From: Escherichia coli
GTDB lineage: Bacteria; Pseudomonadota; Gammaproteobacteria; Enterobacterales; Enterobacteriaceae
NCBI RefSeq assembly: GCF_965641715.1
Contig: NZ_OZ282459.1
Strand: one strand, 5' to 3'
DNA length: 4,779 nt
Under the pieces are notes generated by a model. The model ran no database searches, had not been told where the DNA came from, and was given only the letters and a program-made list of their open reading frames with translations. The stretch's first letter is position 1. Each line of letters starts with the position of its first letter. Below, one piece after another: positions 4,361-4,779 of this stretch. A program made the translations under genes and the position numbers.

Positions 4361-4394
4361 TCGTCCGGTATGCTCAATGAAGATAAGCCAGTTT

Positions 4395-4580
4395 TTAACT
4401 GATTCTTTTTTCGATCGTTTGAAACAAGAATAGTATTTGGCAATAGCGGTTGTCTTTATCTAGCCAAGCACAATTAGCTAGATCTATGTAACCGTTATTT
4501 TGAGACGATCCATATCCGATGACCGTCATCGCTTTTGATTCTGACTTTAAGTAAACTATATCGCCTATATTAAATGGCAT
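4395..4580 (-). CDS. Small DUF2158/YodC-like protein (61 aa), function unknown
   Basis: AGGA SD 7 nt upstream of the ATG at 4580. MPFNIGDIVYLKSESKAMTVIGYG...NCAWLDKDNRY fits the pattern I recall for the YodC/DUF2158 family (GDxVxLKS...MTV...CxW). AT-rich context. Family call is from motif memory only. Confidence 0.5.
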   Translation of the reverse strand: MPFNIGDIVYLKSESKAMTVIGYGSSQNNGYIDLANCAWLDKDNRYCQILFLFQTIEKRIS

Positions 4581-4593
4581 TTTTTTATCCTAT

Positions 4594-4619
4594 AAAAAGC
4601 CACCTCACAGGTGGCTTTT
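4594..4619. terminator. Bidirectional rho-independent terminator hairpin
   Basis: aaaaa-gccacct-cac-aggtggc-tttt: 7-bp GC-rich stem (4599-4605 / 4609-4615), 3-nt loop, A run on one side and T run on the other. Lies 2 nt downstream of the stop of the minus-strand partial gene. Confidence 0.65.
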
Positions 4620-4621
4620 AT

Positions 4622-4779
4622 TTATGCATGATTCCCTTTCGCTACGCGACGATACATGCCAATATCACTTATCTCACTTATTGTGAACTCGGTTAGATTT
4701 TTCTTTGCTGAGCTCCCAGGTCTGATTTCAAGAGTATATAACAAATCAAGAAGTTCTTTTCTGCTATATTTCTGATCGT
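4622..4779 (-). CDS. Hypothetical protein, C-terminal 52 codons only (ORF enters from beyond the window end)
   Basis: Minus-strand open frame from the window edge to TAA at 4624..4622: ...DQKYSRKELLDLLYTLEIRPGSSAKKNLTEFTISEISDIGMYRRVAKGNHA*. AT-rich, followed immediately by the terminator hairpin. No recognisable motif. Confidence 0.45.
   Translation of the reverse strand, partial: DQKYSRKELLDLLYTLEIRPGSSAKKNLTEFTISEISDIGMYRRVAKGNHA

Follow-up and report, generated by a model that had tools for sequence, protein, structure and literature searches.

We analyzed a 4,779-nt stretch of DNA (the window) from the Escherichia coli assembly GCF_965641715.1 (contig NZ_OZ282459.1), with emphasis on the AT-rich region at positions 4380-4779 that borders a cer-like site for Xer recombination. 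Read along the minus strand, this region comprises the end of a gene for a 133-aa protein, a hairpin, and a gene for a 61-aa protein of the DUF2158 family. The 133-aa gene is split between the two ends of the window, and its product is the partner of a ParA-family ATPase encoded immediately before it. The features of this cargo, followed by those of the surrounding backbone, are:

241..1125, minus strand: first cargo gene, a ParA-family ATPase of 294 aa (Pfam AAA_31, E = 1.3e-25; CbiA)
1..244, minus strand: 5' part of the gene for the 133-aa partner, with its ATG (244..242) overlapping the ParA stop codon (ATGA)
4622..4779, minus strand: 3' part of the partner gene, from the second base of codon 82 to codon 133 (last 52 codons), plus the stop codon TAA at 4624..4622
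4595..4619, minus strand: hairpin AAAAGCCACCT-GTG-AGGTGGCTTTT, starting 2 nt past the partner stop codon
4588..4591, minus strand: Shine-Dalgarno sequence AGGA, 7 nt 5' of the DUF2158 ATG and unpaired in the predicted fold
4395..4580, minus strand: DUF2158 gene of 61 aa, stop included (ATG 4580..4578, stop codon 4397..4395)
1222..1324, minus strand: RNAI of a ColE1-type replicon (Rfam RF00106, 95.6 bits)
1223-1254: RNAI terminator, a perfect 14-nt inverted repeat
4329-4356, plus strand: Xer (cer-like) core GGTGCGGGCAA-CGGATG-TTATGGTAAAT, found by pattern match, with a 6-bp central region
Plus strand: MobC and MbeA-D genes of the backbone

Just past the Xer core, GC content falls from 0.525 (4201-4400) to 0.34 (4401-4600). 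The original prediction had noted this shift, as well as the minus-strand gene end at 4779..4622, which is an open frame from the window edge to its TAA. It had described the region as a second cargo block and, at the same time, proposed that both ends of the window might belong to one minus-strand module if the plasmid were small and circular. The latter proposal was borne out, and only one block is present. The frame of the partner gene runs uninterrupted from 244 to 1 and on from 4779 to 4622, giving 133 codons, and in other records the gene is one 402-nt coding sequence right after the 294-aa ParA gene (WP_001505260.1, a hypothetical protein, in NZ_CP129389.1). By rotated base-for-base alignment, the window is a rotation of the circular Salmonella Infantis plasmid pR13.1986_4k (4779 bp, NZ_CP129389.1; L001 among the loci that we fetched) with 7 mismatches. 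A 300-nt probe spanning the junction between the end and start of the window matched exactly inside 3 other records. The window is a complete small circular ColE1-type mobilizable plasmid in which position 4779 joins position 1, and because the 133-aa gene reads in frame through this junction the two AT-rich ends form a single cargo block. This block spans 1548 bp with a GC content of 0.386, compared with 0.575 for the backbone. It is bounded by RNAI on one side and the Xer core on the other, and its three genes all lie on the minus strand in the order ParA-family ATPase, 133-aa partner, hairpin, and DUF2158 gene, the last ending 38 nt from the Xer core.

The DUF2158 gene and its product

The resemblance of the 61-aa protein to DUF2158, first proposed from the letters of the sequence, was upheld by a profile search. 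Pfam DUF2158 (PF09926) matched residues 4-54 across positions 1-48 of its 50-position model (E = 2.9e-6, 27.4 bits). The protein also matched phrog_3261, had no match in NCBIfam, and belongs to a subfamily whose profile recovered 394 library proteins at E ≤ 0.001. Judged on an alignment of 105 DUF2158 sequences, it has the family residues G6, D7, V9, L11, K12, S13, M18, T19, C37, W39, and F51, while L56 is replaced by isoleucine. It shares with the family a single domain of about 60 aa bearing the signature GDxVxLKS..MTV...CxW(F/L)D...F....LE, and departs from it in having SESK where the consensus is SGGP. Aligning the family alignment with YodC by hhalign gave a probability of 96.2% (E = 2.2e-9), and pairwise BLAST of the 61-aa protein against YodC returned nothing. 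By these profile comparisons, the protein belongs to DUF2158, is intact, and is distantly related to YodC; it is distinguished by having a plasmid-borne gene behind a ParA-type pair and beside an Xer site. YodC of E. coli and Salmonella is a sigma-S-dependent small protein with no assigned function (PMC5437024, PMC4447067). We found no demonstrated function for the DUF2158 family, which is mentioned in the literature only in passing, and no solved DUF2158 structure in a sequence search of the PDB.

An AlphaFold2 (AF2) model of the 61-aa protein was a five-strand small beta-barrel of the SH3/KOW-like type, with a predicted local distance difference test score (pLDDT) of 92.5. One reading would make the protein DfrB (R67)-like, with SH3-fold subunits assembling into a tetrameric primitive oxidoreductase such as a trimethoprim-insensitive dihydrofolate reductase. 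We regard this as highly improbable. Many other SH3-like barrels score nearly as well (NdhS 7.8, HspQ 7.7, and the NusG KOW domain 7.6), there is no match to Pfam DHFR_2, and the hhalign probability was 27% locally, confined to a 19-column N-terminal motif, and 4% globally. DfrB is defined by K32, W38, and the VQIY pore motif (PMC9835603), none of which is conserved in the 61-aa protein. K32 falls on L11, a nearly invariant DUF2158 residue, and W38 on A17, a position that is not conserved. Q67, I68, and Y69 of VQIY align to I49, L50, and F51, of which only the phenylalanine is conserved in the family. Lacking both detectable sequence homology to DfrB and its defining residues, the protein was rejected as a DfrB member. 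Several DUF2158 proteins (P0048, P0055, P0062, and P0148) contain 2-10 tandem DUF2158 repeats in chains of up to 850-1600 aa, an arrangement more in keeping with a binding module than with an enzyme. No match to the 61-aa protein was found in phage genomes by tblastn.

Copies of the gene in diverged relatives allowed us to ask whether the open reading frame (ORF) is maintained. RefSeq labels it a DUF2158 domain-containing protein, with some copies named only hypothetical. The frame is open at protein identities of 57-58% in Enterobacter cloacae OW968421, 80% in two Joint Genome Institute (JGI) plasmids, 58% in L018, 43% in Yersinia ruckeri, about 50% in L019-21, 52-55% in a lone copy in CP057083, and 82% in L017, a Logan contig (SRR5630719). 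Across these comparisons, the proportion of nonsynonymous differences (pN) was 0.10-0.40 versus 0.45-0.90 for synonymous differences (pS), with synonymous sites near saturation. Among the least saturated pairs, the ratio of nonsynonymous to synonymous rates (dN/dS) was 0.07-0.18 for DUF2158, 0.02-0.03 for ParA, and 0.03-0.06 for the partner, and nonsynonymous change in DUF2158 was about 4-fold faster than in the neighboring genes. A frame that has stayed open across six or more diverged lineages, at pN values well under those of pS, can be taken to be a selected protein-coding gene. The contrary reading, in which the frame arose by chance or is decaying and the hairpin merely marks the end of the cargo operon, draws on the copies named hypothetical, the lack of an NCBIfam match, and a lost start codon in Salmonella. 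In the latter copy (NZ_CP129389.1) the ATG is ATT at window position 4578, one of the 7 differences, and the PLSDB gene table lists no gene there. This is the least probable of the readings that we weighed. It is already contradicted by the conservation data, namely a frame kept open despite saturated synonymous divergence at the low dN/dS noted above, and it also sits poorly with the retention of all nearly invariant family residues, the confident AF2 model, and the good Shine-Dalgarno sequence.

The intercistronic hairpin and transcription of the cargo

The original prediction of a tight hairpin followed by a 61-aa ORF with a good Shine-Dalgarno sequence was accurate in its coordinates, the stem lying 14 nt from the DUF2158 ATG. 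Its arms (4595-4605 and 4609-4619) are 11 nt long and 100% complementary, with a 3-nt loop and a 7-bp GC-rich core. The centroid energy was -15.3 kcal/mol for the minus-strand RNA, and z-scores were -2.0 for the minus strand and -3.1 for the plus strand. The plasmid has just one other perfect hairpin of 11 nt or more, the RNAI terminator. T-runs flank it on both strands (TTTTTAT on minus and TTTTATTTAT on plus), and a role as a bidirectional terminator in this plasmid is plausible from its sequence. Four T of the U-tract can pair with an upstream A-run, and a consensus terminator scan did not call the hairpin, probably because the A/T-extended stem absorbs the T-run.

A hairpin directly follows the partner stop codon in every relative examined (L004, L005, L015/16, L018, and L019-21, and also L010). 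Five lineages share a GCCACC/GGTGGC stem with different loops. In Y. ruckeri, the 11-bp stem has another sequence and precedes T6; this stem needs three G-U pairs and therefore exists as a hairpin only in the sense-strand RNA. Pectobacterium has yet another stem sequence. A T-run follows the stem in the window, E. cloacae, L018, and Y. ruckeri; L015/16 have a degraded form of it (TTTAAC), and L019-21 have none. Loss of the U-tract in the last two groups while the GCCACC/GGTGGC stem is kept argues against full termination. Overall, this distribution suits an element of the operon RNA that would act as a leaky terminator or a 3' stabilizer. We also considered the palindrome as a conserved protein-binding DNA site, which is unlikely given that the stem differs in Y. 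ruckeri and Pectobacterium although the partner is about 82% identical; the dependence of the Y. ruckeri stem on G-U pairs likewise weighs against a DNA site. The putative attenuator resembles known intercistronic intrinsic terminators or attenuating stem-loops, which make expression unequal within an operon, in having a GC-rich stem and T-run after a stop codon and before the next Shine-Dalgarno sequence, at a position conserved in relatives. It differs from them in that two lineages are without a U-tract and in that the window element is symmetric and could also stop antisense transcripts.

A scan for sigma-70 consensus promoters found none in 4200-4779 on either strand, and there is no terminator between the DUF2158 gene and the Xer core. 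By hand we found a weak candidate promoter within the partner gene (TTCACA, 15-nt spacer, GATATT) and rejected it, as its spacer is short and it is not conserved in E. cloacae or Y. ruckeri. ParA, the first cargo gene, has the same orientation as RNAI and begins 97 nt beyond the RNAI 3' end. The spacer (1126-1222) has no clear consensus promoter, its candidate being TTGATG and TATACT separated by 19 nt, so the cargo operon may depend partly on RNAI read-through. For a conserved TTGACG/TATACT region 5' of ParA, we rejected a role as promoter or operator of that gene. The Rfam RNAI match identifies this region as the RNAII promoter/RNAI part of the replicon; it is also kept in backbones without ParA and is missing 5' of ParA in other contexts. 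In L017 (positions 1-1100), which has a related ColE1 backbone, the RNAI/RNAII-promoter leader is joined straight to the DUF2158 ATG, with neither ParA nor partner, and downstream of DUF2158 come two small ORFs for predicted membrane proteins (88 and 53 aa) and then the Xer core. Because this leader runs directly into the DUF2158 ATG, that upstream region can serve the gene. Co-transcription with partial termination is the most economical model given the lack of a promoter, the 14-nt gap, the arrangement of L017, and the lineages without a U-tract. The original prediction of a separately terminated small gene was not sustained, there being no terminator after DUF2158 and no consensus promoter before it, and conserved synteny favors co-transcription with the ParA pair.

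An alternative is that DUF2158 is an independent cargo gene. Under this alternative, the hairpin would fully terminate the ParA-partner operon and form part of the DUF2158 5' leader, a non-consensus (e.g., sigma-S) promoter would lie in the 3' end of the partner gene, and the function of DUF2158 would be unrelated to the pair. The strong stem with T5 in the window is what would be expected of such an arrangement, and chromosomal yodC provides a precedent as a stand-alone sigma-S gene (PMC5437024, PMC4447067). Independence would also suit the faster nonsynonymous evolution of DUF2158, its occurrence without the pair in L007 and L017, and the occurrence of the pair without it at many loci. Set against this are the absence of a consensus promoter, with the best candidate being short-spaced and unconserved, a gap of only 14 nt between stem and ATG, two lineages that lost the U-tract yet keep DUF2158, and a gene order kept across six lineages with saturated synonymous sites. 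We consider an independent gene somewhat unlikely.

The ParA-type pair and its link to DUF2158

The first cargo gene encodes a protein with the deviant Walker A sequence SEKGGVGKTT (KGGVGKT) and a match to the ParA-like partition protein phrog_164 (1.2e-37), while its NCBIfam ParA-type matches all fell below cut-off. By motif and profile, it is a bona fide deviant Walker A ParA. The partner had no Pfam, NCBIfam, or PDB sequence match (the PDB search by sequence also returned nothing for the 61-aa protein). Its AF2 model is predicted to be all-alpha (pLDDT 90.5), and it has an invariant C-terminal EISDIGMYRRVAKG motif. A profile search recovered more than 230 homologues, every one named hypothetical. 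It is a member of an unnamed, uncharacterized all-helical family. No known DNA-binding domain was matched, and a weak Rho_N/SAP-like similarity suggests that it may bind nucleic acid through such motifs. None of the three protein accessions was found mentioned in the literature, and none of the three cargo proteins had a meaningful match in PADLOC-DB, where ParA matched PDC-M28B at 9e-6 over residues restricted to Walker A (5-51) and the partner scored 11.8 bits.

The cassette resembles type I partition cassettes (ParF/ParG and ParA/ParB) in that, on a plasmid, the gene for a deviant Walker A ATPase precedes that for a small partner whose translation is coupled to it. Unlike them, its partner belongs to an all-helical new family with Rho_N/SAP-like hints, rather than being a ribbon-helix-helix protein or a helix-turn-helix ParB, its ParA falls below the NCBIfam cut-offs, its host replicon is of the high-copy ColE1 type, and it lacks iterated centromere repeats. 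In the 2.7-kb stretch searched for such repeats (the cargo with flanks, 4357..1260), no 9-mer occurred three or more times, and the only strong palindromes were the cargo hairpin and the RNAI terminator. The pair also occurs elsewhere, with gene lengths and the 4-bp overlap kept in many settings. These include a plasmid of Y. ruckeri on which there is also a separate small ParA pair, an Acidovorax conjugative plasmid, chromosomal islands of Pseudomonas and Pectobacterium (the latter adjoining a KAP NTPase, CcdA, TacAT-type genes, and an integrase), and a phage-like contig where it comes after lysis genes. Among the fetched loci, the cassette was present in L005, L006, L008, L010, L012, L013, and L026-L034.

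We scanned all 35 fetched loci with hidden Markov models. DUF2158 lay directly downstream of the pair in six lineages (the window family, E. cloacae OW968421, JGI L015/16, L018, Y. ruckeri L005/L025, and L019-21), and in all six the partner was at least 74% identical to that of the window. No DUF2158 gene accompanied the Pectobacterium pair (82% partner identity) or the pair at any locus with a partner identity of about 62% or less, comprising Pseudomonas, Vogesella, Zoogloea, Hydrogenophaga, Alcaligenes, Acidovorax, sphingomonads, and the phage-like contig. Conversely, the DUF2158 subfamily occurred without the pair in L007, a 3.7-kb plasmid, and in L017. Among these loci, DUF2158 accompanies the ParA pair only within an enterobacterial-type subclade. 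Its absence at distant loci, its solitary occurrence in L007 and L017, and the ATT start in Salmonella point to an accessory or hitchhiking neighbor rather than a core component. The ribosome-binding regions of ParA and DUF2158 are alike (ATAAGGAATAAAAATG and ATAGGATAAAAAAATG, respectively), which could allow deletion between them.

These distributions bear on whether ParA, the Rho_N/SAP-like partner, and DUF2158 form one undescribed three-part system of mobile elements, with a role in plasmid or DNA positioning and stability, exclusion, or anti-phage defense. DUF2158 would then be a fast-evolving specificity or regulatory subunit dosed by the hairpin. Strict order and spacing across six lineages would be expected of such a system, faster evolution would suit a specificity factor, and the pair is present in variable islands and a phage-like contig. 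Yet DUF2158 is missing from most ParA-partner loci, even from that of Pectobacterium, whose partner is 82% identical. In addition, the Salmonella copy starts with ATT, DUF2158 persists in L017 where the pair does not, and PADLOC gave no meaningful match. We therefore view a three-part system as improbable.

With a probability of roughly 60%, we favor the explanation that the region at 4380-4779 forms the far end of the single cargo block carried by a 4.78-kb ColE1-type plasmid, in which DUF2158 is a dispensable accessory co-transcribed with the ParA pair through an attenuating hairpin. DUF2158 would have no promoter of its own; transcription would begin 5' of ParA, either at a weak promoter in the 97-nt spacer between RNAI and ParA or as RNAI read-through, and would reach DUF2158 by passing the hairpin. 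The hairpin, as a partial terminator or 3' stabilizer, would leave the ParA pair in excess over DUF2158; on the opposite strand, it would block transcription entering from the mob/cer side. For the DUF2158 protein, we propose a small binding module with an SH3/KOW-like fold that either assists the ParA-partner module as an accessory or hitchhikes on it, and the pair would position or stabilize DNA, which is its most likely role, albeit without strong support.

Several observations weigh against this explanation. The high-copy ColE1 replicon has little need of partition, no iterated centromere-like repeats lie beside the ParA pair in the 2.7-kb stretch searched, and the pair also resides in chromosomal islands with toxin-antitoxin genes and a KAP NTPase and in a phage-like contig. 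The hairpin with T5 in the window resembles a competent terminator, past which we only infer read-through. The conserved gene order could stem from a single common ancestor of closely related small plasmids rather than from a functional tie to the ParA pair. Finally, DUF2158 may have a non-consensus or sigma-S promoter, as YodC is sigma-S dependent (PMC5437024).

Plasmid relatives and significance

The region at 4380-4779 matched 30 PLSDB records at ≥ 99% identity, all of them small mobilizable plasmids of 4.8-9.1 kb, whose hosts were mostly E. coli from pigs along with some Salmonella and Shigella. It was present in 20 of 5426 complete E. coli genomes, always on a plasmid and never on the chromosome. 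The plasmid is a common small plasmid of pig E. coli, enterotoxigenic E. coli (ETEC), and Salmonella. Its cargo occupies the slot used across the ColE1 family, between the RNAI/RNAII promoter region and cer, where low-GC foreign genes lie between RNAI and an Xer site on a mob+ backbone. The window differs in carrying a ParA-type cassette and DUF2158 rather than colicin or resistance genes, and the content of the slot is swapped among relatives (L017).

In several small-plasmid backbones, the DUF2158 gene, or cargo headed by it, ends at the XerD-side arm of a cer-like core. Cores at the cargo end were located at 4329-4356 in the window, ~1716-1750 in L004, ~2760-2790 in L007, and ~1088-1115 in L017. 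In E. cloacae, the stop codon lies just 4 nt from the core, and the window has about 32 nt extra there. The arms of the window core are assigned to XerC and XerD on the model of cer/mwr-type sites. The central region of ColE1 cer is 8 bp, compared with the 6 bp (CGGATG) of the window core.

Further observations concern the backbone. A 21-nt imperfect inverted repeat (2075-2118; 81% complementary, 2 nt between arms) lies just 5' of the MobC-family gene and probably belongs to the oriT/bom region. The 4776-4811-bp forms have sister plasmids of 5125-5162 bp, and the one such record inspected (CP055673.1, 5128 bp) has a Rop gene that the window is without. Several records annotate a 132-135-nt coding sequence as a replication initiation protein; the example in NZ_CP129389.1 (WP_001505258.1) falls in the RNAI/RNAII region and looks like an annotation artefact. 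The cargo end also occurs in a genome assembly of Pseudomonas sp. A-RE-19, where a 4906-bp contig (L024, NZ_JAHBDQ010000052.1) contains the 133-aa gene at 100% identity and an exact match to the 300-nt junction probe, which could reflect a broader host range or contamination.

The features of the region are ordinary and already annotated in RefSeq and public records. The best-supported reading matters little in itself, as it describes the end of an ordinary cargo operon on a common small plasmid. As by-products, however, the entire cargo of this plasmid resolves into a ParA-type ATPase and a partner family that is uncharacterized yet widespread on proteobacterial mobile elements, and the DUF2158/YodC family gains a confident SH3/KOW-like model and its first consistent genomic association. 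Natural variants, including L017 without the ParA pair, the copy with an ATT start, and the hairpins without a U-tract, are ready-made experimental controls. Should the improbable three-part system prove true, it would provide the first functional handle on both DUF2158/YodC and the unnamed family of more than 230 ParA partners.

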